Source: an uncultured Actinomycetota bacterium
Lineage (GTDB): Bacteria; Actinomycetota; Actinomycetes; Propionibacteriales; Nocardioidaceae
DNA length: 64,000 bases
NCBI GenBank assembly: GCA_963805345.1
Contig: CAWDUA010000012.1
Span: 503 to 64,502 of the forward strand
Reading direction: 5' to 3'
The notes beneath the pieces were generated by a model. It did no database searches, was not told the DNA's origin, and worked only from the letters and a program-made list of their open reading frames with translations. How positions within the stretch are numbered: position 1 is the stretch's first letter; each line of letters begins with the position of its first letter. The position numbers were made by a program, and so were the translations under genes. This document shows positions 6,251 to 35,691 of the stretch, in pieces.

Positions 6251-6849
6251 AGATTCAGCCGGCCGCGGCGACGGTGGCGACGTGGGGGACGGGGGACGGG
6301 GGGACGGGGGGGACGGGGGGACGGGGGGGACGGGGCTGTCTGGGGCTCGTCAGGCTGCTCGTCGTCCAACCACAGCGAGAAGGTGCGGTGCACCCACTCG
6401 TCGTCGGCGAGTTTCTCGCTGGCGCCCGGGAGGTCCATCTCTTCGTGATGAGCCATGAAGCACTTCATCAGCGGTCCATCTGCGGGGCGATTGGTGTAGT
6501 GCACGACCAGCATGTTCAGGTCGTTGACGTCGCCCTTCGACCTGGGCCGTGTCGAGATCGCCTTGTGGAAGAGGTCCAGGTTCACCACATCGTCGGTGTA
6601 GGGCGACACCCTGATCCAATCGTTGTCGCCCCTGGTCGAGTGATGCACGGCCCGGAAGGGTCGATCCCGATCCGCAGTCGGGCCGATCAAGATCACATGA
6701 TGTTCGATCGTCCGCTGGGTGGGCGACGCGTCCGGCTGGGTGCTCGGATACATCACGGCTAGGAACAGGGCATCGGTCAGCCAGTCAAGGCCATCCATGC
6801 GACGCGCAAAGTCTCTGGCAAACGCGCTCAACTCGGGGGTCTGCACCAC
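6229..6849 (-). CDS. Hypothetical protein with Pro-rich repeat tail
   Basis: ORF 6229..6909 with likely GTG start at 6849; C-terminus crosses the G-run repeat. Confidence 0.6.
   Translation of the reverse strand: MVQTPELSAFARDFARRMDGLDWLTDALFLAVMYPSTQPDASPTQRTIEHHVILIGPTADRDRPFRAVHHSTRGDNDWIRVSPYTDDVVNLDLFHKAISTRPRSKGDVNDLNMLVVHYTNRPADGPLMKCFMAHHEEMDLPGASEKLADDEWVHRTFSLWLDDEQPDEPQTAPSPPSPRPPRPPVPRPPRRHRRRGRLNLWRSPMS
6284..6335. repeat. Irregular tandem (G5-7)AC repeat
   Basis: G-run lengths 5,5,6,7,6,7,4 separated by AC. Confidence 0.95.
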
Positions 6850-6953
6850 CGGAGGATCCTCACACGCCGGGCAGCCGCGGCGGCGACGATTGCGTGAGAC
6901 TGGGGCCACCTGCGGGTGGTTGAGCCTCTATGGACTTGACCCTCGACTGACAA

Positions 6954-7010
6954 CCGCTCACGACATGAAGCGTCCTCAGCCGAGCGCGGACAGCGGCATG
7001 TGCGGACGTC
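6954..7010 (+). repeat. Island spacer site R2
   Basis: CCGCTCA...GAGCGCGGACAGCGGCATGTGCGGACGTC. Confidence 0.85.
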
Positions 7011-7058
7011 TGAATGTGGCTCGCACCGGCGTGGGGAAGCAGCCAGACTGTGGCGGTG

Positions 7059-25144: not shown

Positions 25145-27673
25145 TCAGACGAGGTGCAGCCGCGGGGAGAGAGCGAGCTTCGAGTTCTCCCTCAGGCCGC
25201 GCCTGCGGAGCCCGTCGTCCGCGACCCGGCGGGCCTTCGTCTTCTGAACCCCGTAGGCGATGCCGGCCTTGACCCACGCCGGGCTGCCGAAGCAGCTGGT
25301 GGGGATGGACACGGTGAGGCGGCCCCGGCGCCGCGCGATGTCCCCAGCGATGTCGCAGGCGACCTTGTCGCCGTCGGAGTTCCGGAGGGTGAACGCGACC
25401 CCGGACCCGTGGTGGTTCCTTCCGGACCAGGAGTACTCCTCGCCGCCCGCGACGTGCAGCCGGCCACCGGCGATCCAGCGGTCGGCGATCGAACCGCTCC
25501 TGACGGTGACCCTCGACGTGAGCTGGTCGCTGGTGTAGTGCAGGCGGGTCTGGACGATGTCGGCGGCCCTGCTGCCGTCGGCTCGCGAGACGTGCCCGTT
25601 GGCGGGATCGTAGTTCTGGGCGTCGTGACTGTCGTCGCGGTGCCGGAAGGACGCCCTGCCCGGCTGCTGGACGCCTTCTTCCACGGTTCCCTGGTAGATG
25701 AACATCGCCCGTGAGGCCCAGCCGGTCCCGGCGGAGGTCAGCTGGGTCACGGTCCCCGCCACCGGTGCGTTCGCCGACTGCCTCCAGGTCGCCGAGAACA
25801 GCGCGCCGGCGGTGGTGGCGTAGTACAGCTTGTCGCCCACCACGAACGCGCCACGCACGGTCGACCAGTTGATGTCACTCGTGGTGGTCGAGAACCGCTG
25901 CTGACCGACGACGTCGTCCTCGACCTCGAAGCCGCGACGGTAGAGCGCGTTCGAACCCGACTTGGTGTAGTAGATCCGACCATTGGCGTAGAAGATGCTG
26001 GTCAGCGTCCTCGCGTCGGTGTGCCAGTCTCTCTGGACGACCAGCGCGTCTGCGGCGTTCACCGGTGACGGGGCGCCATAGGTGCTGCCGTCGAAGGACA
26101 TCTTCGCGACCGCGCCGTCCGAGTCCACCTTGTAGACCAGGCCGTTGACCATGAACGCGCCGGTGGCGCTGCCCCAGCCCGGACCCGTGGGCGCGCTCGC
26201 GGGCGTGTCTGCCGTCGTTCCGGTGAAGCTCAGCCGGGTCAGCTGCGACGCCCCCGAGGCGACCCGGAAGACGGTGGCCGGCAGCGCGCTGGTCTGCAGC
26301 GGCGGCAGAGTCTTGCCTCCCGTGAGAGGCATGAAGGCGATCCGGGGGTGGTAGGTGTTGCCGGGCGTGTGGCCGATCAGCTCGGTGTCGGACCCGACGT
26401 AGAGCCCGTCGGCCGTCGCCAGCATGTCCTGGATCCCGACGCCGCGGGCGCGGGTCGGGTTCCACGAGTACGGCATCCCGTTGACCGTGTTGAGCGCGGC
26501 GATGCCAGTCCGGGCTACCGCGCCGGGGCCCGGCACGTTGTTGCCGCCAGGGTTGTTCTGGTACTTCTGGTGGCCGCCGGCATAGATGACGTTGTCGGTG
26601 ACCTCGACGGTCCACGTCGTGTCGCTGCCCGTGTACGCCGTCCAGCTCGGGGTGGACCTTGCCGTGGTGTCGTCCTCGAACCGGGCGACCACGTCGCACC
26701 CCGACGTGCCGGCGTTGCTCGCCGCGGCGCCGCCGTAGGCGCCGGTGGTGGAGACGACGAAGAAGGTCCCGTTCGGTGCGTACTCGACGTCGGTCATGTA
26801 GGTGTCGAACCGCGCGGCACACGCGGAGGTGTAGAGGGTCGTCGACCAGGGCGACACGCTCGAGTGTGCGCTCGAGCTGGTGCCGCTGGGGATGTTCGCG
26901 ATGTCCAACCGAGCGATCTGCCAGCGGGTCTGGCTGTCGACGCTGGTGAAGTTGCCCACCGCCATCAGCGCGGTGTTCTGGGGGTTGACCGAGATCTGGA
27001 GGACGTCGGTGACCGCGGCCGGGTGAGAGTTGCGCACCCCCGCGAACACGTTGTCGACGTAGGGGTCGCGCTGGCCGGTGTCCGCGTACAGCGTGCCCAG
27101 CGCCTTCTGGTCGACGCCGCCGATGTGGCTGAACTTGCCGGCGACGAACAGGTGGTTTCCGACGACCTCCAGGTCGCGGATCTTGCCGTCGATCTTCGGA
27201 GCGACGAACGAGGAGCTGATCGCCCCGGTGGTCACGTTGATCTTGAACACCTTGCCCGGCACCGACTTTCCGGCGGCGGAGGTGAACTGTCCCCCGACGT
27301 AGACCGACTTGCCGTCGGCGGCCGGCAGCACCTTGTAGACCGTGCCCGTCGGGTTGGGCGCGAATGACGTCAGCAGCTCGCCCGTCGTGGCGTCGAAGGC
27401 CAGCACGTTGTTGCGGGTGACCACGGTGGAGGTGCCGTGGTTCTGCGCGCGGGTGAACTGGCCACCGACGACGATCGTGTTGCCGACCTTGGTGATCGAG
27501 TAGACCGTCCCGTCGAGGATGTTCGGTGCGTTGTTGCCGGGCTCGTCGCTGACGATCCTGCCCGTCTGTGGTGCCGGGTTTCCGGTGTCGGCGGCCCGCG
27601 CGGTGGCGAGCCAGACACTCAGGCCGGAGGACACCACAGCAGCGAGCAACAACGGATACAGCAGTCTGCGCAC
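25145..27673 (-). CDS. Large secreted beta-propeller-rich protein
   Basis: Signal peptide; repeated VGGxF / YVGGQF blades; distinct C-terminal domain after MFIYQG. Confidence 0.85.
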   Translation of the reverse strand: MRRLLYPLLLAAVVSSGLSVWLATARAADTGNPAPQTGRIVSDEPGNNAPNILDGTVYSITKVGNTIVVGGQFTRAQNHGTSTVVTRNNVLAFDATTGELLTSFAPNPTGTVYKVLPAADGKSVYVGGQFTSAAGKSVPGKVFKINVTTGAISSSFVAPKIDGKIRDLEVVGNHLFVAGKFSHIGGVDQKALGTLYADTGQRDPYVDNVFAGVRNSHPAAVTDVLQISVNPQNTALMAVGNFTSVDSQTRWQIARLDIANIPSGTSSSAHSSVSPWSTTLYTSACAARFDTYMTDVEYAPNGTFFVVSTTGAYGGAAASNAGTSGCDVVARFEDDTTARSTPSWTAYTGSDTTWTVEVTDNVIYAGGHQKYQNNPGGNNVPGPGAVARTGIAALNTVNGMPYSWNPTRARGVGIQDMLATADGLYVGSDTELIGHTPGNTYHPRIAFMPLTGGKTLPPLQTSALPATVFRVASGASQLTRLSFTGTTADTPASAPTGPGWGSATGAFMVNGLVYKVDSDGAVAKMSFDGSTYGAPSPVNAADALVVQRDWHTDARTLTSIFYANGRIYYTKSGSNALYRRGFEVEDDVVGQQRFSTTTSDINWSTVRGAFVVGDKLYYATTAGALFSATWRQSANAPVAGTVTQLTSAGTGWASRAMFIYQGTVEEGVQQPGRASFRHRDDSHDAQNYDPANGHVSRADGSRAADIVQTRLHYTSDQLTSRVTVRSGSIADRWIAGGRLHVAGGEEYSWSGRNHHGSGVAFTLRNSDGDKVACDIAGDIARRRGRLTVSIPTSCFGSPAWVKAGIAYGVQKTKARRVADDGLRRRGLRENSKLALSPRLHLV

Positions 27674-28167
27674 GTCGACGGTCCCCCCGTGAGAGGGCAG
27701 ACCGGCACCACGCACCGGTCGCCCTTGCATCCGCAGGCTAACCCCGAACGGGACGTTGTCCTAGTGCGCGTTTCTACGTTCGTTCGCGAGATCGTCGACC
27801 CCTGGTCCCACTGGGCCACGGAGAAGATCGCCCTGGGCCTGGTCGCATGTCGCCACCACCGGTGTCGACTGGCAGGAGTACCTGACCCTTCCCCTGATCT
27901 CGGCTGCGAGCACCTGTCGATGCCGGGCTGCCGCGCATCCCGTGAGGCAGCCCGCGGCCCGCGCACGCAATGCCCTGCGACCCGACCTTCAGGAACCGCG
28001 ACACCGGGTGAGAGAGCCGACCTCGGTGAGGTCAACCGAGCAGCAAATGTGGCCATCCCAACAGTTGCACCCGACAAACTAATTTGGTTCAAGTCGTTGA
28101 CATGAGCGCGCTCGCGAGGTCTAGACCGGTCTGCGGGGCTTCTTGGTGGCAGCCCCTGGGGGTTGTG

Positions 28168-28833
28168 ATGAGACGCTTACTGGGCCCTGCGATGACCGTT
28201 CTGCTGGGGGCCGGCTTCGTTGCCCTGATGGGCTTCCTGCTCCATCAGCAACCCGCGCCCGCCCTCGCTGCGTCGGCGAAGACGGGATCCGCGACTCCCC
28301 ATCACGTGTACCTCCACCTGTCGACGTACCCCGACAGCATGGCGGGCGAGCACGGCAAGGACGGCGGTCCCGAGCCCGACTGGGTGAGCTACGGTCCGAC
28401 GACGACCTTGGAGGTGCCACGGAACTCCCTGGTCACCGTCACGATCAGCCAGTACGACGGCGGCGAGGCGATCACCAACCCATGGTTCGCGCGTGTCCAC
28501 GGCACGATCGACGGGACAGAGACGGTCGACGGCAAGCCAGTGACCGAGGTGGATCCGGCGGCGGTCGGTCACACGTTCACGATCCATGCCGCGCCGACGG
28601 CTCAGGATCCGCTCTTCGTGAGCGCACCGTTGCCTGCGGTTCCAGACGATGCACCGTTGGCGCCGGGGAGCGCCTACCCGAAGCCGATCGAGGTCACCTT
28701 CTCGTTCCGGACCAAGGGTCCGGGCAAGTACGTGTGGAACTGCGAGTTCCCGTGCGGAGACGGCACCTACGCGAAGTTCGGCGGGCCGATGTCCACCCGG
28801 GGCTGGATGTCCGGCACGTTGACGGTCACGTGA
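28168..28833 (+). CDS. Membrane-anchored cupredoxin-like protein
   Basis: N-terminal TM; GHTFT; FSFRTKGPGKYVWNCEFPCG..GPM..WMSGTLTV cupredoxin-type C-terminus. Confidence 0.7.
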   Translation: MRRLLGPAMTVLLGAGFVALMGFLLHQQPAPALAASAKTGSATPHHVYLHLSTYPDSMAGEHGKDGGPEPDWVSYGPTTTLEVPRNSLVTVTISQYDGGEAITNPWFARVHGTIDGTETVDGKPVTEVDPAAVGHTFTIHAAPTAQDPLFVSAPLPAVPDDAPLAPGSAYPKPIEVTFSFRTKGPGKYVWNCEFPCGDGTYAKFGGPMSTRGWMSGTLTVT

Positions 28834-28883: not shown

Positions 28884-29654
28884 GTGTCAGAGACAGAGGT
28901 CGCCGAGAGACGCACTCCCTGGTGGCAGAGCGAGGACGCGCGGGTCCTCGGCGTACTGTGGGCCGCATTCACGGTCCTCGGCGTGGTCTTCGCCCTGATC
29001 GTGCCCCATCACCTGATGGGACCCTCGGCTTCCAACACGATGACCGAGGTGGAGCGCACGTTCACCGTCTTCTCGGTCGCGTCGGCGCCCGTGGCGGCAG
29101 TGGTGTGGGCCTTGCTGGTCTACAGCCTGTGGAAGTGGCGCCGCCGTGGCGACTGGTCACCCGACGACCCCGACGGACCGCCCCTCCGCGGCCACGGGTG
29201 GACGACCGGGCTGTGGATGTTCGCCTCCTCTGCTCTGTGTCTTTTCCTGCTGATCTGGGGTCTGGCAGCCCTCAGCAGTGTCGACTCCGCGACCGCCGCG
29301 ACCCCGCTGGAGATCGAGGTCACGGGGCAACAGTGGATCTGGACGTTCACGTATCCGGACAACGGGAACGTCGAGAGCGACCAGCTCTACCTGCCGATCG
29401 ACCGGCCGGTCGTCTTCCGGGTGACGAGTGACGACGTCATCCATTCCTTCTGGGTCCCCGCGATGGGGATCAAGGTCGATGCGAACCCAGGCATGACGAC
29501 CACCACGCAGACCACGCCCGACCGTCTGGGCACCTACCACGTGAAATGCGCAGAGCTGTGCGGGCTTCTGCACGCCGACATGGAGACCAACGCCCATGTG
29601 GTCTCGGCCGACGACTTCGCCACGTGGGCCGCTTCCCAGGGGGGTAGCCGATGA
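28884..29654 (+). CDS. ctaC: Cytochrome c oxidase subunit II
   Basis: GQQWIW, DVIHSFW, CAELCGLLHADM (CuA). Confidence 0.95.
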   Translation: MSETEVAERRTPWWQSEDARVLGVLWAAFTVLGVVFALIVPHHLMGPSASNTMTEVERTFTVFSVASAPVAAVVWALLVYSLWKWRRRGDWSPDDPDGPPLRGHGWTTGLWMFASSALCLFLLIWGLAALSSVDSATAATPLEIEVTGQQWIWTFTYPDNGNVESDQLYLPIDRPVVFRVTSDDVIHSFWVPAMGIKVDANPGMTTTTQTTPDRLGTYHVKCAELCGLLHADMETNAHVVSADDFATWAASQGGSR

Positions 29655-31582
29655 CCGTCGCCGACTCGTACACGACCGACCCGGTCAAAGGAGGCCCGGA
29701 CGGTGGTGTGATGCGCCGTCTCAACATGGGCACCGGTCTGGTGGGCGGCATCGTCCTCGCCCTGGTCTTCAACCTGGTCGCCAAGTCGCTCGCCGACGAC
29801 GCCGTGCACGAGGTGGACGTCCGCGCGACCGCGACCATGGTCGGCTGGGCGATCGGCTTCATGGCCGGTCTGGGGGCGTTCACCGGCCCGTTCCGGTGGC
29901 TGGTCGGGCGCGACCTGACCCACGCCGACGAGCTCTTCCTGGCCGGGAAGGACCAAGGCGTCGGCCGCTACTTCCGGTTCACGACCGACCACAAGGTCGT
30001 CGGGATCCAGTACCTCGTGCTCACCATGGTCATGCTCGGTGCCGGCGGCACCATGGCGATGCTCATCCGTACCGACCTGATCTCACCGAACTCGGGGTTC
30101 CTCGGCCCGCAGACCTACAACTCGCTGGTCGGTCTGCACGGCCTGACGATGATCCTGGCGACGATCATCATGGTCACGGGACCCTTCGGGAACTTCGTGG
30201 TCCCGTTGATGATCGGTGCCCGGGACATGGCGTTCCCTCGGCTCAACGCCTTGAGCCTCTGGCTCCTGGTGGCCATGTTGCCGGTGCTGTACTCGGCCGC
30301 CTTCCTCGGGGGCATCCCGATGGGCTGGGTCGGTTACACGCCGATCGCGGACCAAGGGCCCGCCGGCGTCGACTCCTACATGGTGGCCATCTTGATCTTC
30401 GCGGTCTCGACGGCGGTGGCCGGCTCGAACATCACGACGACGATCCTGACCATGCGGGCGCGCGGGATGACCTGGACGCGCACCCCGATCTTCGTGTACG
30501 GCGTCCTGGCCAGCGTCGTGCTGGCTCTGCCCGCCTTCCCCATGTTCATGGGGGCCGAGATCCTGCTCCTGGTCGACCGGCTGATGGGTGGCGGGTTCTA
30601 CGTTCCCAGCCTCGGAGGCCAGCCCTGGCTCTACCAGAACCTGTTCTGGCTGATGGGGCATCCCGAGGTCTACGTCATCCTGATCCCCGCCGTCGCGGCG
30701 CTGATGGAGCTGACGGCGGTGTTCGCGCGCAAGCCCCTCTACAGCTTCCGGATCGCCGTCCTGTCGATCATCGCGATCGTGGGCCTCAGCGTCACCGTCT
30801 GGGCGCACCACATGTTCGCCTCCGGCTGGGCGCCGGACCTCAACGGTCCGTTCATGCTCACGACAGAGATGATCTCGATCCCCACCGGTGGTCTGTTCCT
30901 GGTCATCCTCGGCACCCTGTGGCGTGGTCGCATCTGGACGACGCTGCCGCTGATGTGCACCTACGCCATGCTCTGGAACTTCATCATCGGCGGGATCACC
31001 GGGATCTACCTGTCGGACGTTCCGCTCGACTACCAGCTGCACGGCTCCATGTTCGTGACAGCTCACTTCCACTACACGCTGATGGGTGCGGGACTCACGG
31101 GCGCCATCGGCGCGATGGCCTACTGGTTCCCCAAGATGACGGGCCGGATGCTGGGCACGACGTCGGGCTTCGTCTCCTTCTGGGTGGTCCAGATCGGGTT
31201 CAACGTGACGTTCCTCGGGATGTTCATGGTCGGACTGGAGGGTCAGCCTCGTCGAGTCGTCCACTACGAAGCCGCCTACCACGCGGGAAACCTGATCTCC
31301 ACGATCGGCGCCTACTTCATCGGGGTCGGCATGCTCATCTTGTTGTACGACGTGATCGCGTCGTGGCGACACGGTGAGGTCGCGCCGATGAACCCCTGGG
31401 GCGCCAAGACGCTGGAGTGGACGGTCCCGAACCCGATCCCCTTGGAGAACTTCGCCGTTCTGCCCGTGGTCACCGAGGACGCCTACGGATACGGCGAACC
31501 GGCTGAGCCCGAACGGGTGCCGGTATCGGTCTCTGCGGGCGCCGATACGGGTCCGGAACAGGGCGAAGGGGCGATGACATGA
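29651..31582 (+). CDS. ctaD: Heme-copper oxidase subunit I (A-type, atypical)
   Basis: TTDHK, LHG, DMAFPRLN, GHPEVY, WAHH, AHFHY, PRR. Confidence 0.97.
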   Translation: MTVADSYTTDPVKGGPDGGVMRRLNMGTGLVGGIVLALVFNLVAKSLADDAVHEVDVRATATMVGWAIGFMAGLGAFTGPFRWLVGRDLTHADELFLAGKDQGVGRYFRFTTDHKVVGIQYLVLTMVMLGAGGTMAMLIRTDLISPNSGFLGPQTYNSLVGLHGLTMILATIIMVTGPFGNFVVPLMIGARDMAFPRLNALSLWLLVAMLPVLYSAAFLGGIPMGWVGYTPIADQGPAGVDSYMVAILIFAVSTAVAGSNITTTILTMRARGMTWTRTPIFVYGVLASVVLALPAFPMFMGAEILLLVDRLMGGGFYVPSLGGQPWLYQNLFWLMGHPEVYVILIPAVAALMELTAVFARKPLYSFRIAVLSIIAIVGLSVTVWAHHMFASGWAPDLNGPFMLTTEMISIPTGGLFLVILGTLWRGRIWTTLPLMCTYAMLWNFIIGGITGIYLSDVPLDYQLHGSMFVTAHFHYTLMGAGLTGAIGAMAYWFPKMTGRMLGTTSGFVSFWVVQIGFNVTFLGMFMVGLEGQPRRVVHYEAAYHAGNLISTIGAYFIGVGMLILLYDVIASWRHGEVAPMNPWGAKTLEWTVPNPIPLENFAVLPVVTEDAYGYGEPAEPERVPVSVSAGADTGPEQGEGAMT

Positions 31583-32268
31583 GCACCGAGTCGCTCGTCA
31601 ACAAGGAGGCCTTCGCACCCGAGGAGCCGGAGGACTTCGGCGATCGCTGGCGCACCGGCGTCCTGCTCCTGATCGTGGCGGACGCCTCGTTCGTGGCGGC
31701 GCTGTCCTTCGCGTTCCTCTACCTGCGAGGCATCAACACCCAGTCGTCGTTCCACCCGGGAGGCACCGGTGTGGCCTCGCTGTGGTGGCCCTGGCTGGTG
31801 ACGGCGGTGATGATCGCCTCCTTCCTCGCCTATCGCCTCGGGCTGGAGGCACACGAGCCGGGACGGCGACACTTCCTCAACGGCGGCGTCGTGGCCCTGG
31901 TCGGCATGTGCGTCGCATTGGTGCTCAACATCGTCGAGATGGCCGAGTTCCCCTTCCACGTCAGCGACAACGCGTACTCGTCGGCGGTCTGGGTCCTCGC
32001 GGCGGGGAACGTCTTCCACCTGCTGATCACGGTGTTCCTCGGGCTCGGCATCGTCATCCGGGTGCAGCGGCGGGTCACGCGCGGCGCCCGGGACTGGCAC
32101 GTGCGCCTCGTCGGCATCTGGTTCGCGTGGGTGTGCGTCGCAGCACTCATCGGAGCACTCACGGTCACTGTCGCCAATGGGACCGTGGGCTGCCCGCTAC
32201 CTGCGGATCAGCCGGATCCCGGGGCCCGGTCAGTAGTGGCGCCGTCGTGTCCCAGCGCGTCGAGGTAG
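31579..32268 (+). CDS. ctaE: Cytochrome c oxidase subunit III (short form)
   Basis: ATGA overlap with ctaD; about 5 TM helices; NAYSSAVW..GNVFHLL; 3' end uncertain. Confidence 0.75.
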   Translation: MSTESLVNKEAFAPEEPEDFGDRWRTGVLLLIVADASFVAALSFAFLYLRGINTQSSFHPGGTGVASLWWPWLVTAVMIASFLAYRLGLEAHEPGRRHFLNGGVVALVGMCVALVLNIVEMAEFPFHVSDNAYSSAVWVLAAGNVFHLLITVFLGLGIVIRVQRRVTRGARDWHVRLVGIWFAWVCVAALIGALTVTVANGTVGCPLPADQPDPGARSVVAPSCPSASR

Positions 32269-32588
32269 TCCTGCCACGCCCGCAGGCCCGGATCGTCCTC
32301 GGGGATGTCGCGGTCGTCGGGCCTGCGCGGAGGGCTCGGCCGGCGTGTCTCGCGCTCGGTGACCAGTCGCCACCACATCCAGCCGAACAGCACGGCGAAC
32401 AGCGGCCACTCGAAGACGTACACCCACGCGATGGTGTGACCGTCGCGCGCCCGGGTCAGCTCGAACCATCCCGCCGCGAAGCAGAAGCAGACGGCCGGCA
32501 GGAAGACAGCGTGGTAGCGCAGGTTCTGCCTCGTCCAGACCCTCGGCCTGGACGTTGCATCGCGCGCAGCACTCCTCGGACGGCTCAT
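32208..32588 (-). CDS. Small membrane protein resembling mycobacterial LprD
   Basis: GWFELTRA..WVYVFEWPLFA..DPGLRAWQDYL pattern; similarity recalled, not searched. Confidence 0.6.
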   Translation of the reverse strand: MSRPRSAARDATSRPRVWTRQNLRYHAVFLPAVCFCFAAGWFELTRARDGHTIAWVYVFEWPLFAVLFGWMWWRLVTERETRRPSPPRRPDDRDIPEDDPGLRAWQDYLDALGHDGATTDRAPGSG

Positions 32589-33439
32589 CCGCGGGCCCTC
32601 GACGCCAGGGGGCCGGTGCCCCGCTCCTGGCGGCGGGTGCGGCGTTCCTCGTCCTCCAGCCACTGGTATCCGGCGACCACGAGCCAGACCACCCCCAGCG
32701 CCATGGACGTCGACCACATCAAGATGCCTGCGAGGTGCTGGTCGGCGAGCGGGTCCGGGCCGAACGGGCGTGCGACGTGTGCGTAGTAGGGATAGCCGAG
32801 GTGGGGCTCGGCGAAGATGGCGAAGCCCAACATGGCCATCGGGACCATCACCGTGAACAGCGAGACCATGCGCACGCCGTGGGGCACATGCCGGGTCCCG
32901 GTCGACGGGACCAGGAGCGGCTGGAAGTACACCACCGCGCTGACCAGATAGAGCGTGTGCTCGAGGTAGTCGTGCAGGAGCGGATGGGTCAGGAAGCCGT
33001 CGTACACGGCAGGGAGGTGGGTGATACCCATGACGCCCACGAAGAACACCCAGCCGAAGACGGGGTTGGTCAGCACCAGCACGACACGGCTGCGCAGGAC
33101 GGGCACCCACAGCCGTCGCCGGGTGTCAGCGTCACTGGCCCGAAGCACCAGCAGCACCGGCTCGCCGAGGACCAGCAGGGGAGCAGCCAGCATGGTGAGC
33201 AGGATGTGCTGGGTCATGTGGGCGTAGAAGAAGACGTCGTCGTAGGCTCCCGGAGGTCCGACCAGGGCGAACGCCGTGACGACCAGCCCGGAGACGAAGC
33301 ACACCGTGCGGGACGCCTGCCACGGCTGCGAAGGCGAACGCCGTGTGACCCGGGACGTCGCCACGACGTACCACGTTCCGCAGGCGAGCACCGCCAGCCA
33401 GGGGACCGGAGAGAGCTCCCAGGCCCCCAGCAGCCGCAT
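32585..33439 (-). CDS. CtaG (Caa3_CtaG)-family oxidase assembly protein
   Basis: HMTQHILLTMLAAP, WVFFVGVMGITH, EHTLYL, DQHLAGILMW; start approximate. Confidence 0.88.
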   Translation of the reverse strand: MRLLGAWELSPVPWLAVLACGTWYVVATSRVTRRSPSQPWQASRTVCFVSGLVVTAFALVGPPGAYDDVFFYAHMTQHILLTMLAAPLLVLGEPVLLVLRASDADTRRRLWVPVLRSRVVLVLTNPVFGWVFFVGVMGITHLPAVYDGFLTHPLLHDYLEHTLYLVSAVVYFQPLLVPSTGTRHVPHGVRMVSLFTVMVPMAMLGFAIFAEPHLGYPYYAHVARPFGPDPLADQHLAGILMWSTSMALGVVWLVVAGYQWLEDEERRTRRQERGTGPLASRARG

Positions 33440-33465
33440 GGCTTCGGTCACGTCCACGCACGGTA

Positions 33466-33485
33466 CGCGCCTTCCGGCAGGCGCG
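33466..33485. promoter_or_regulatory. 7-6-7 palindrome between the divergent ctaG-like and sco genes
   Basis: CGCGCCT-TCCGGC-AGGCGCG. Confidence 0.35.
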
Positions 33486-34238
33486 GAATACTCTTCGCCA
33501 CTGCAATTCTCGTGCTGCTCGTCGTCGCGTCGGGGTGCGGTACGCGCGGGTCCGCGGCCGACGCCGGGCCCGCCGCGCCGGAGATCGGGACATCCCTCGA
33601 CGCCCCGGTGCCCGACAGCGTTCTCACCGCGCCGCTCATCGACAGCCACGGGCACCCCACCACGCTGGGAGCCCTTCAGGGCAAGGTGATCGTGCTCTCC
33701 GATGTGATGACCCTGTGTGCCGAGTCCTGCCCGATCATCACCGCGAGCATGGTGGCCGCTGCGCGCGACATCGACCGCACCCCTCTGGGTCGACATGTCG
33801 AGTTCGTCAGCCTCACCATCGACCCGACCCGCGACGACGGCCAACACCTGCGCGCCTACCAGCGGCAGTTCGGGAGGCTGCCCAACTGGACCGTGCTGAC
33901 GGGGAGCCCACGGGTCGTCAACGGGGTGTGGCACACGCTGGGGGTCTGGCGACACCTCACCCATCTGAAGCCGCCGTTCTCCCGCGACTGGGTCACCGGC
34001 GCACCCTTGACGACGGACATCGCCCACACCGACGAGCTGATCTTCATCAGTGGCGCGCAGAACTTCCGCTACGAGCTCGAGGGCTATGGGAACGTGTCAC
34101 CGTCCGCGATCCCCAAGCGGATCTACGACTTCATGGACCGGCTCGGCCACCGCAACGTCTCGACGCCGGACCCCGGTTCCTGGACCCCCGCTGAGGTGAC
34201 CCAGGTGCTCCGACTGGGTCCTCGGGAGCACCCAGTGA
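33480..34238 (+). CDS. SCO family copper chaperone (lipoprotein); start not found, 3' end possibly frameshifted
   Basis: VVASGC lipobox, CAESCP (CxxxC), [13 protein letters not shown]. Confidence 0.85.
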
Positions 34239-34771
34239 GGGCGGCCCTGCTTTCCTTCGCGCTCGCCCTCGTCTGCGCGTCCTGCTCGTCGATGCACCGC
34301 GCGCCCGCGACTCCCGCTCTGGGGTCCGGCCTGCAGGTGTTCCCGGCCGCCACCCGCACGTCCGCCCCGAGCATCAGCGGCACCACGATCAACGGCGACT
34401 CGCTCGACCTCGCCGACGAGATGGGGCACGGCGTGGTCGCCCTGAACGTCTGGGCCTCCTGGTGCGGCCCGTGCCGCAAGGAGATGCCGGTGCTGGCTCG
34501 CGCCGCGGGGAAGCGGCTGCGGGTGATCGGGATCGACGAGCGCGACAGCAGCCGTTCGGCCCGGTCCTTCGCAACCTCGCGCGGCGTGTCCTACCCGAGC
34601 CTGTCGGACCCACAGGGAGAGCTCCTCGCGGACCTTCCCATGCTGCCCCAGACCGGTGTGCCCAGCACGCTCTTCCTCGACGCCCGGGGCCGCGTGGCCG
34701 CACGCGTCATCGGGCCCGTCGACGCACGTGGCCTCCGTCGCATCCTCCGACAGCTAGGAGCATCCCGATGA
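34235..34771 (+). CDS. TlpA/ResA-like thiol-disulfide redoxin
   Basis: [24 protein letters not shown]; own signal peptide from GTG 34235. Confidence 0.9.
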
Positions 34772-35691
34772 CCGCGCCCCTGGTGACGACGACGCCCGGT
34801 CTGACCGCCACGCGCGAGCTGGTCTCGGCGTACGTCGCGTTGACCAAGCCGCGCATCATCGAGCTCCTGCTCTTGACGACCCTCCCTGTGATGTTCCTGG
34901 CCAGTGACGGTGTGCCACCGCTCGGCCTGGTCGTGGCGACCCTCGTGGGCGGAACGCTGTCGGCGGGCAGCGCCAACGTCCTCAACTGCGTCGTCGACGC
35001 CGACATCGACGCCCGGATGAGGCGCACTCGTCGCCGACCGCTCGCGCGCGACCTCGTGTCCCGACGCTCTGCGCTCGTGTTCGGCCTGGTACTCGGAGCA
35101 GTCTCCACCGTCGGCCTCGGGGTCCTCGTGAACTGGTTGTCGGCGTGCCTGGCGCTGGCCGCCAACGTCTTCTACGTCGTGGGCTACACGATCTGGCTGA
35201 AGCCTCGGACGAGTCAGAACATCGTCTGGGGTGGCGCCGCCGGCTGCTTCCCCACCCTCATCGGCTGGACCGCCGTCCAGGACGGCCTGGCCTGGCCCCC
35301 GGTCGTGCTCTTCCTCGTCGTCTTCTTGTGGACCCCGCCACACTTCTGGGCGCTGGCCATGCGCTACCGCGAGGACTATGCAGCCGCCGACGTGCCGATG
35401 CTGCCCGTGGTCGCGCCGACCCAGGTCGTGGCACGTCAGATCCTCCGGTACGCACTGGCGACCGTGGCCATGTCGCTGGTCTTGTGGCCGGCCGCGCACA
35501 CGGGCCTCGTCTATCCCGCCTTCGCGGCGGTGCTCGGTGCAGCCTTCATCGGCGAGTCGGCGCTCCTGCTGAGCCGTGCTCGCGGCTCCGACGATCTGTC
35601 GGTGCTCCAGCCGATGAGACTCTTCCACCTCTCGAACCTCTACCTGAGCCTTCTGTTCCTGGCCGTGGCCCTGGTGCCGTTCGCACGCTGA
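34768..35691 (+). CDS. ctaB: Heme o synthase (protoheme IX farnesyltransferase)
   Basis: [49 protein letters not shown]. Confidence 0.95.

Follow-up and report, generated by a model that had tools for sequence, protein, structure and literature searches.

The stretch analysed here, which we call the window, comprises 64,000 nucleotides of contig CAWDUA010000012.1 (positions 503 to 64,502; assembly GCA_963805345.1) from an uncultured member of the Nocardioidaceae, and it carries a gene cluster for a respiratory oxidase. Four genes lie head to tail on the + strand in the order ORF249-coxB-coxA-coxC-like. We found that the enzyme encoded by this operon is very probably a heme-copper terminal oxygen reductase of the A family, which belongs to a published lineage with two additional transmembrane helices (2TM) and without a canonical K-channel. 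The features of the operon, in window positions, are as follows.

28168 to 28833, + strand: ORF249, a conserved membrane-anchored protein with one N-terminal transmembrane (TM) helix (open reading frame, ORF, called mechanically at 28084 to 28833)
28884 to 29654, + strand: coxB, subunit II, 256 amino acids (PF00116; TIGR02866)
29651 to 31582, + strand: coxA, subunit I of an A-family heme-copper oxidase, 643 amino acids, 14 predicted TM helices (PF00115)
29726 to 29872, + strand: two extra N-terminal TM helices of CoxA, residues 26-47 and 54-74 (AlphaFold2, AF2, model)
30860 to 30895, + strand: helix VIII signature TTEMISIPTGGL with T404, T405, E406, S409, T412 and L415 (alignment to solved oxidases; codons)
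31040 to 31045, + strand: H464-G465 of the motif LHG (residues 463-465), in which the Mg/Mn-site Asp (HD) of canonical enzymes is replaced by Gly (PDB-chain alignment)
31579 to 32268, + strand: coxC-like subunit III in a short five-helix form, 229 amino acids, its start overlapping the coxA stop (weak PF00510 match)

The residues that the initial annotation of this DNA had read in subunit I (six His ligands, HPEVY, the D-channel motifs, L415, E406 and LHG) are all present. The six His ligands are H163, H337, H386, H387, H472 and H474, helix VI carries HPEVY at 337-341 with Y341 as the cross-linked Tyr, and the Arg pair is R534/R535. The D-channel is whole, with GN (N181), DMAFPRLN (D192 and N199) and E339 in helix VI. 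CoxA matches PF00115 with an E value of 1e-118, it is closest among PDB sequences to Thermus caa3 (E 1.5e-117), and its model reaches target-normalised TM-scores of 0.8-0.86 against unfused 12-helix A-family COX1 chains, while the E value against the B-family ba3 is only about 1e-6. The enzyme had been proposed to be non-canonical, and CoxA indeed scores under the cut-offs of both TIGR02891 (527 bits; cut-off 670.75) and the actinobacterial aa3 model NF050116 (411 bits; cut-off 880).

In phmmer alignments against PDB chains, TTEMISIPTGGL of CoxA falls on FTALIAVPTGVK of Thermus caa3 and MTFLIAVPTGIK of M. smegmatis, which places L415 at the position of the K-channel Lys, T412 at that of the conserved Thr and E406 at a position that is normally hydrophobic. 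E406 (GAG at 30866) stands nine residues before L415 (CTG at 30893), at K-9, and S409 stands at K-6. The same register was obtained against several solved oxidases by phmmer and against more than 200 homologs by tblastn and blastp, so the earlier assignment of a Leu to the Lys position with a Glu at 406 stands, and a misalignment hiding the Lys was rejected. The lower K-channel of CoxA is fully hydrophobic, with M352 in place of a Ser, L415 in place of the Lys and V418 in place of a second Ser; the equivalents of S299, K362 and S365 are all lost, and CoxB has T108 in place of the K-channel entry Glu. The three marks of a K-channel (the Lys, the helix VI Ser and the subunit II Glu) are thus absent from the aligned sequences, which is a known exception within the A family.

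This arrangement is not peculiar to one contig. All of the 120 closest homologs, which share 64-93% identity and come from soil and other metagenomes, read TTE-x-IS-x-PTG followed by Leu or Ile and never by Lys. Two separate studies provided soil-metagenome runs with contigs that span the L415 codon, and the sole variant listed is G>C at 30895, which gives CTC. The CTG at 30893, on which the claim of a lost Lys depended, was therefore met in these independent contigs only as CTG or CTC, both of which encode Leu, and does not reflect a read error.

The distribution of the helix VIII residues was compared in 140 diverse COX1 sequences, 71 bearing the Lys and 69 without it. Glu at the position of E406 was found in 29 of the 69 Lys-less sequences and in none of the 71 others (Fisher p = 2.7e-11, a value that overstates the independence of the sequences). 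Glu406, Ser409 and the loss of the lower polar residues were the top group-specific positions, Glu and Ser being the strongest, and where CoxA has Ser409, the Lys group has an Ala with 92% conservation. Proteins of the Glu group have lost the three lower polar residues of the K-channel (the helix VI Ser, the Lys and the helix VIII Ser/Asn) together and retain both upper Thr residues. In this diverse sample, the signature T-E-x-[IV]-S-[IV]-P-T-G without Lys is confined to Lys-less enzymes. At the Mg site, 23 of 29 sequences of the Glu group have Gly and 62 of 71 of the Lys group have Asp; nine residues ahead of the Arg pair, CoxA has Phe instead of a His. Neither this Gly nor this Phe is common to all Lys-less members. 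We rejected LHG, that is, loss of the Mg site, as a general part of the same adaptation, since other Lys-less members keep HD or HN.

A scan of GTDB species representatives gave a best CoxA match of 65% identity. The closest labelled homologs are metagenome-assembled genomes (MAGs) of Nocardioidaceae, Oryzihumus, Frankiales and Pseudonocardiales, in agreement with the actinobacterial host suggested before. Fifteen loci (L001-L015) share the helix VIII, HPEVY and LHG of CoxA and come from Actinomycetota and Acidimicrobiales MAGs and from Ktedonobacteria, including Dictyobacter kobayashii. Three more (L016-L018, from MAGs of Methylomirabilota, Limnocylindria and Chloroflexi) share this helix VIII, but their helix VI reads YSHPAVY, and the remaining loci of this one-genome-per-species scan read PTG[IV]K. 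Among 150 cluster representatives, a Glu-bearing, Lys-less helix VIII was also found in Acidiferrobacter thiooxydans, Marsarchaeota, Thermoplasmata, other Euryarchaeota MAGs and Hydrothermarchaeota.

A search seeded with the Acidiferrobacter COX1 returned 118 full-length alignable homologs, and all 118 have the Glu, a Ser three residues on and no Lys. They include Acidithiobacillus ferriphilus (TLTETVSVPTGFIYLS), Acidihalobacter, Sulfobacillus and Ferroacidibacillus; the likeness to a TExxSIPTG helix of Acidithiobacillus, which the initial annotation had pointed out, is thus real, the same motif occurring in A. ferriphilus, Acidihalobacter and Sulfobacillus. In a neighbor-joining tree, a distance tree without maximum-likelihood or Bayesian support, CoxA falls with a group of Acidiferrobacter, Chloroflexi and Actinobacteria sequences, far from P0158, which we read as a canonical actinobacterial CtaD. 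This grouping with Acidiferrobacter and Chloroflexi COX1 and away from CtaD speaks for the acidophile-like clade proposed earlier.

Such enzymes have been described before. In COX1 of acidophilic iron oxidisers, the K-channel Lys is replaced by a hydrophobic residue and COX2 is without the entry Glu, and related sequences were reported from Actinobacteria (Acidithrix) and from Actinobacteria and Chloroflexi MAGs (bioRxiv 10.1101/2020.03.01.968255; PMC8239418). Degli Esposti et al. relate a 2TM subclade to these oxidases of acidophilic iron oxidisers (PMC8239418; bioRxiv 10.1101/2020.03.01.968255), and the row "2TM Chloroflexi & Actinobacteria" of their Table S1 gives two extra TM helices, K-channel "no", caa3_CtaG "yes" and HPEVY (PMC8239418). 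The row for a Pseudonocardiales MAG in the same source (K354=L, S291=M, T351=T, E292=E, COX2 E78=T; pattern Y, M, L, T, I, E) is matched exactly by the residue pattern of CoxA and CoxB.

Supplementary Table S1 and the table of Fig. S7 (PMC8239418) show for the 2TM subclade the same replacement of K354 by Leu, Ile or Phe, the same replacement of S291 and of COX2 E78, and the same HPEVY in TM6. They also give the same two extra helices and a caa3_CtaG in the cluster (here PF09678 at 32585-33439, and present in related loci as well), with hosts among Actinobacteria, Acidimicrobiia and Ktedonobacteria-type Chloroflexi. On these tabulated characters nothing essential differs, and CoxA is a further member of a described lineage that, in this source, is characterised so far by sequence comparison and phylogeny only. 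The tree, the ranking of homologs by identity and the shared helix VIII signature likewise group CoxA with members of this clade. Since the clade and its K-channel loss are already published, CoxA is not a new enzyme type. The K-9 Glu, the K-6 Ser, the Mg-site change from Asp to Gly and the upstream protein are not listed in the K-channel tables and the passages concerned of PMC8239418 and the bioRxiv version; what we add are modest leads, namely the Glu/Ser signature, the D-channel that CoxA has kept and the conservation of the upstream protein.

Comparison with better-known systems helps to place CoxA. The aa3 oxidase of the rus operon and its relatives (Acidithiobacillus, Acidiferrobacter, Acidihalobacter; Sulfobacillus) have the same T-E-x-V/I-S-V/I-P-T-G without Lys and PEVY in helix VI, and their subunit I of about 620-650 amino acids extends well before helix I, as CoxA does. 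However, these enzymes share only 35-43% identity with CoxA, the proteobacterial and Firmicutes members are without the D-channel Asp and Asn (GARNVVYPKLL as against GARDMAFPRLN in CoxA), and they read LHN or HD where CoxA reads LHG. In four COX1 proteins of acidophilic iron oxidisers (P0445, P0271, P0451 and P0488), we observed that the D-channel Asp and Asn and the K-channel Lys are lost and the Glu/Ser pair is kept. None of the cyc2, cyc1 and rusticyanin/cytochrome c families was found among the scanned ORFs of the window, in which the part from about 7.3 to 16.7 kb is barely annotated.

Canonical actinobacterial aa3 CtaD (M. smegmatis, M. tuberculosis, C. glutamicum), the subunit I of the bcc-aa3 supercomplex, has the same fold and active site with about 38-40% identity over the 12-helix core, but it has PTGIK with the Lys, is without the 2TM extension and matches NF050116, whereas CoxA does not. 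B-family oxidases such as Thermus ba3, and likewise sNOR, work without the Lys through a K-analogue lined by Ser, Thr and Tyr. A conserved Glu has been reported in the K-channel region of sNOR (PMC11214002). Both are distant families without a D-channel, and CoxA is clearly of the A family.

CoxB matches TIGR02866 with 174.9 bits (cut-off 147.7), has three hydrophobic segments and carries a complete CuA site (HSFW...CAELCGLLHADM). Its segment GHGWTTGLW, starting at residue 103, holds no Glu anywhere, and alignment with subunit II of Thermus caa3 sets T108 against the Glu of "gndrlevvw", in line with the earlier observation that the entry Glu is missing. The entry position in 16 related loci is Q, L, I, T, V or A, with Glu in L001 only. 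The coxB of that locus (6327-7046), from the same Lys-less clade, encodes a canonical GNTRVETIW with the entry Glu kept, so that the two losses, of the Glu from subunit II and of the Lys from subunit I, are not strictly coupled.

The N-terminal membrane extension with two helices, claimed in the initial annotation, is borne out by the AF2 model. Both extra helices (26-47 and 54-74) are among its most confident parts, with block-mean values of the predicted local distance difference test (pLDDT) of 84-97, whereas a hydropathy scan (19-residue window, threshold 1.6) detected only the first, at 24-52. In this model, whose mean pLDDT is 69, the canonical helix I lies at 114-143 and helix VIII at 400-425, with E406 six residues from the outer end of helix VIII and L415 mid-membrane. 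The linker that follows the extra helices (residues 75-113) is conserved and probably cytoplasmic, and 41 clade members are invariant at G69, F70, G73, G75, A76, P80, W83, G86, D88 ... D113, H114 and K115. The GxGA motif of the second extra helix also occurs in Lys-bearing 2TM enzymes. A specific partnership between the extension and Glu406 was considered and is unlikely, as a similar extension is found in Lys-bearing enzymes (P0127-P0129). Our PDB searches returned no structure of a Lys-less 2TM enzyme.

All 15 loci of the HPEVY subclade (L001-L015) have ORF249 immediately before coxB, and the three YSHPAVY loci (L016-L018) lack it. The likely start of ORF249 is the ATG at 28168, which gives 221 amino acids as against 249 from 28084; this later start agrees with the homologs of 220-230 amino acids, whose matches span 88-90% of the query. 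In all, 957 homologs were detected, and among the 120 matches listed every named one is "hypothetical" and none has a Pfam domain; ORF249 itself is without a Pfam or NCBIfam match. The protein consists of one N-terminal TM helix and a beta-rich outer domain in which H163 (in HTFT), C220-x3-C224-G, M236 and M242 (numbered from 28084) are invariant. The CuA ligand pattern is H...C-x3-C-x3-H-x2-M, of which the second His is absent from ORF249. By hhalign, the H/C/C of ORF249 falls on the CuA H/C/C of CoxB in a weak match (E 0.007, probability 5.6%), and the AF2 model, beta-rich but weak (pLDDT 55, shallow alignment), has as its top Foldseek matches NosZ, the nitrous-oxide reductase with a CuA domain (E about 1e-3, TM about 0.3). 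From these similarities and the model, ORF249 is tentatively a probable CuA-derived cupredoxin-like protein that lacks the second His ligand.

The position and the single-helix membrane anchor of ORF249 recall AcoP of A. ferrooxidans, whose gene also lies just upstream of coxB. AcoP is a membrane-anchored cupredoxin that partners the oxidase (PMC10804444). No sequence similarity between ORF249 and AcoP was detected: a PDB profile search gave no AcoP at E values up to 10 and only a marginal match to auracyanin (E 0.25).

How might the enzyme work with a D-channel and without the lysine? In the mechanism that we propose, electrons would enter at CuA, possibly by way of the CuA-like ORF249, and O2 would be reduced at heme a3-CuB, with the D-channel carrying the pumped protons and most of the substrate protons. 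Glu406 and Ser409, with Thr405 and Thr412, would form a cluster buried on helix VIII roughly as deep as CuB, replacing the lysine in internal proton donation and in charge compensation when the binuclear centre is reduced. E406 adjoins a Thr that we take to correspond to the one bonded to a CuB His in canonical enzymes. This Glu406-based mechanism is a tentative hypothesis that we consider less likely than not. The wider proposal is possible but doubtful: that Glu406/Ser409 is the defining element of a Lys-less A-family superclade with a distinct proton route, and that ORF249 is a new copper protein derived from CuA, its ligands being one His, two Cys and Met, and acts as an electron-entry or stabilising subunit as AcoP does.

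Several points weigh against this picture. The CoxA model is weak near E406 (pLDDT below 50 for residues 397-407), and by a helical-wheel count E406 and the Lys position lie about 180 degrees apart, so that E406 may not line the same cavity. The association of Glu with the absence of Lys is partly phylogenetic, arising from one or two large clades, and not every member of the archaeal Lys-less cluster has the Glu. The role given to ORF249 rests on weak similarity. No ctaA (heme A synthase) was seen within the window, heme A being assumed, and a search for RNA runs containing the operon found none.

The first alternative to the Glu406-based mechanism is a "KC" route like that of cbb3 enzymes, which would run through other helices and replace the K-channel, with Glu406 being structural or tuning CuB and not carrying protons. 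It draws on relatives labelled "KC-channel" or "hybrid" in PMC8239418, including the Pseudonocardiales entry with CoxA-like K-channel residues, and on E353 at the foot of helix VI, a position at which 28 of 29 sequences of the Glu group have Glu or Asp. However, the KC-like positions tabulated there for the relatives are small residues (G/A/S/S) and not the S/S/H/Y of true cbb3, and the invariance of Glu406 and Ser409 would be left unexplained; we consider this route unlikely.

We give a similarly low probability to a second alternative, in which all protons pass through the D-channel, or the enzyme is a low-efficiency oxidase that does not pump, so that loss of the K-channel is tolerated and Glu406 has another role. 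Intact D-channel residues and a fully hydrophobic canonical lower K-channel would both suit this account. Yet K-channel Lys mutants of R. sphaeroides and P. denitrificans are almost inactive, the reduction of their binuclear centre being stalled, and a working enzyme therefore needs a substitute. Moreover, the acidophile relatives have also lost D132 and N139 and nevertheless keep Glu406/Ser409, which argues that the Glu/Ser pair is the constant functional element. An error of sequencing or assembly at the Leu codon, or decay of coxA as a pseudogene copy of ctaD, has nothing in its favour and practically no probability left, since the frame is intact with a GC content at third codon positions (GC3) of 0.91 like that of neighbouring genes, every catalytic residue is conserved, and the 120 homologs and independent contigs described above, with their synonymous CTG/CTC, rule it out.

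Downstream of the operon, the following genes were identified.

32208 to 32588, - strand: small conserved membrane protein of about 126 amino acids, its ATG overlapping the ctaG stop (homologs beside the operon)
32585 to 33439, - strand: caa3-type CtaG, copper-insertion assembly factor (PF09678, E 1.5e-59, trimmed ORF)
33452 to 34771, + strand: SCO1/SenC (CAESCP) and TlpA/redoxin-like (WCGPC) parts in a single frame, start codon uncertain (PF02630; PF08534/PF00578)
34768 to 35691, + strand: ctaB, heme O synthase, its ATG overlapping the SCO-TlpA stop in ATGA (NF003349, 422.6 bits; cut-off 246)

From these assignments, the locus is an oxidase gene cluster with its own predicted maturation genes for copper and heme O, namely CtaG, SCO-TlpA and CtaB. 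The frame at 33452-34771 is apparently a fusion of two CuA-maturation proteins: in the version starting at 33515, PF02630 covers residues 41-144 and PF08534/PF00578 residues 283-403, and the TlpA/DsbE NCBIfam matches score under the cut-off. The SCO1/SenC and TlpA-like parts are separated by a second hydrophobic, lipoprotein-like segment. The small membrane protein at 32208-32588 is without a Pfam family match, and its homologs adjoin the oxidase operon in seven related loci (L001-L003, L005 and L007-L009). The coxC-like product has five hydrophobic segments and matches PF00510 at E 4.7e-4, under the gathering score; most of the related loci (L001-L012 and L014) likewise have a coxC-like gene following coxA. 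Divergent from the operon lies an ORF of 861 amino acids (25145-27730, - strand; GC3 0.93) with an N-terminal hydrophobic segment and repetitive Gly/Thr-rich motifs, without a Pfam match.

The sequencing runs that contain the window sequence are soil metagenomes, and there is no second COX1 gene within the 64 kb. Housekeeping genes are found in the right half of the window (an aconitase-family gene, plsC, gpsA, ddl, a thiL-like gene, recG, coaD and smc); such flanking genes (aconitase-family, gpsA, ddl, recG and smc) indicate a chromosomal setting and are not lineage-specific. Regulators and a helicase occupy the left half. GC content is lower and uneven in the left part (0.64-0.70 at positions 1-24000, with genes for a helicase (AAA_30), a helix-turn-helix protein, a sigma factor and a LuxR-type regulator) and 0.70-0.74 in the right part (36000-64000), and few ORFs with high GC3 occur between about 7.3 and 16.7 kb. 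The oxidase cluster is located at the junction of this left part with the housekeeping chromosome, which would fit acquisition by transfer.

The K-channel lysine is counted as essential in textbook A-type oxidases, and a large natural lineage, to which CoxA very probably belongs, does without it. CoxA keeps the D-channel without the K-channel, so that the substitute for the lysine could be sought in it against a cleaner background than in the acidophile enzymes, where both channels are lost. The Glu406/Ser409 signature offers a specific pair of residues for mutation, and ORF249 is a candidate for a new partner subunit. If the proposal of a Lys-less superclade defined by Glu406/Ser409 is true, this superclade would span acidophilic iron oxidisers, soil Actinobacteria and Chloroflexi.

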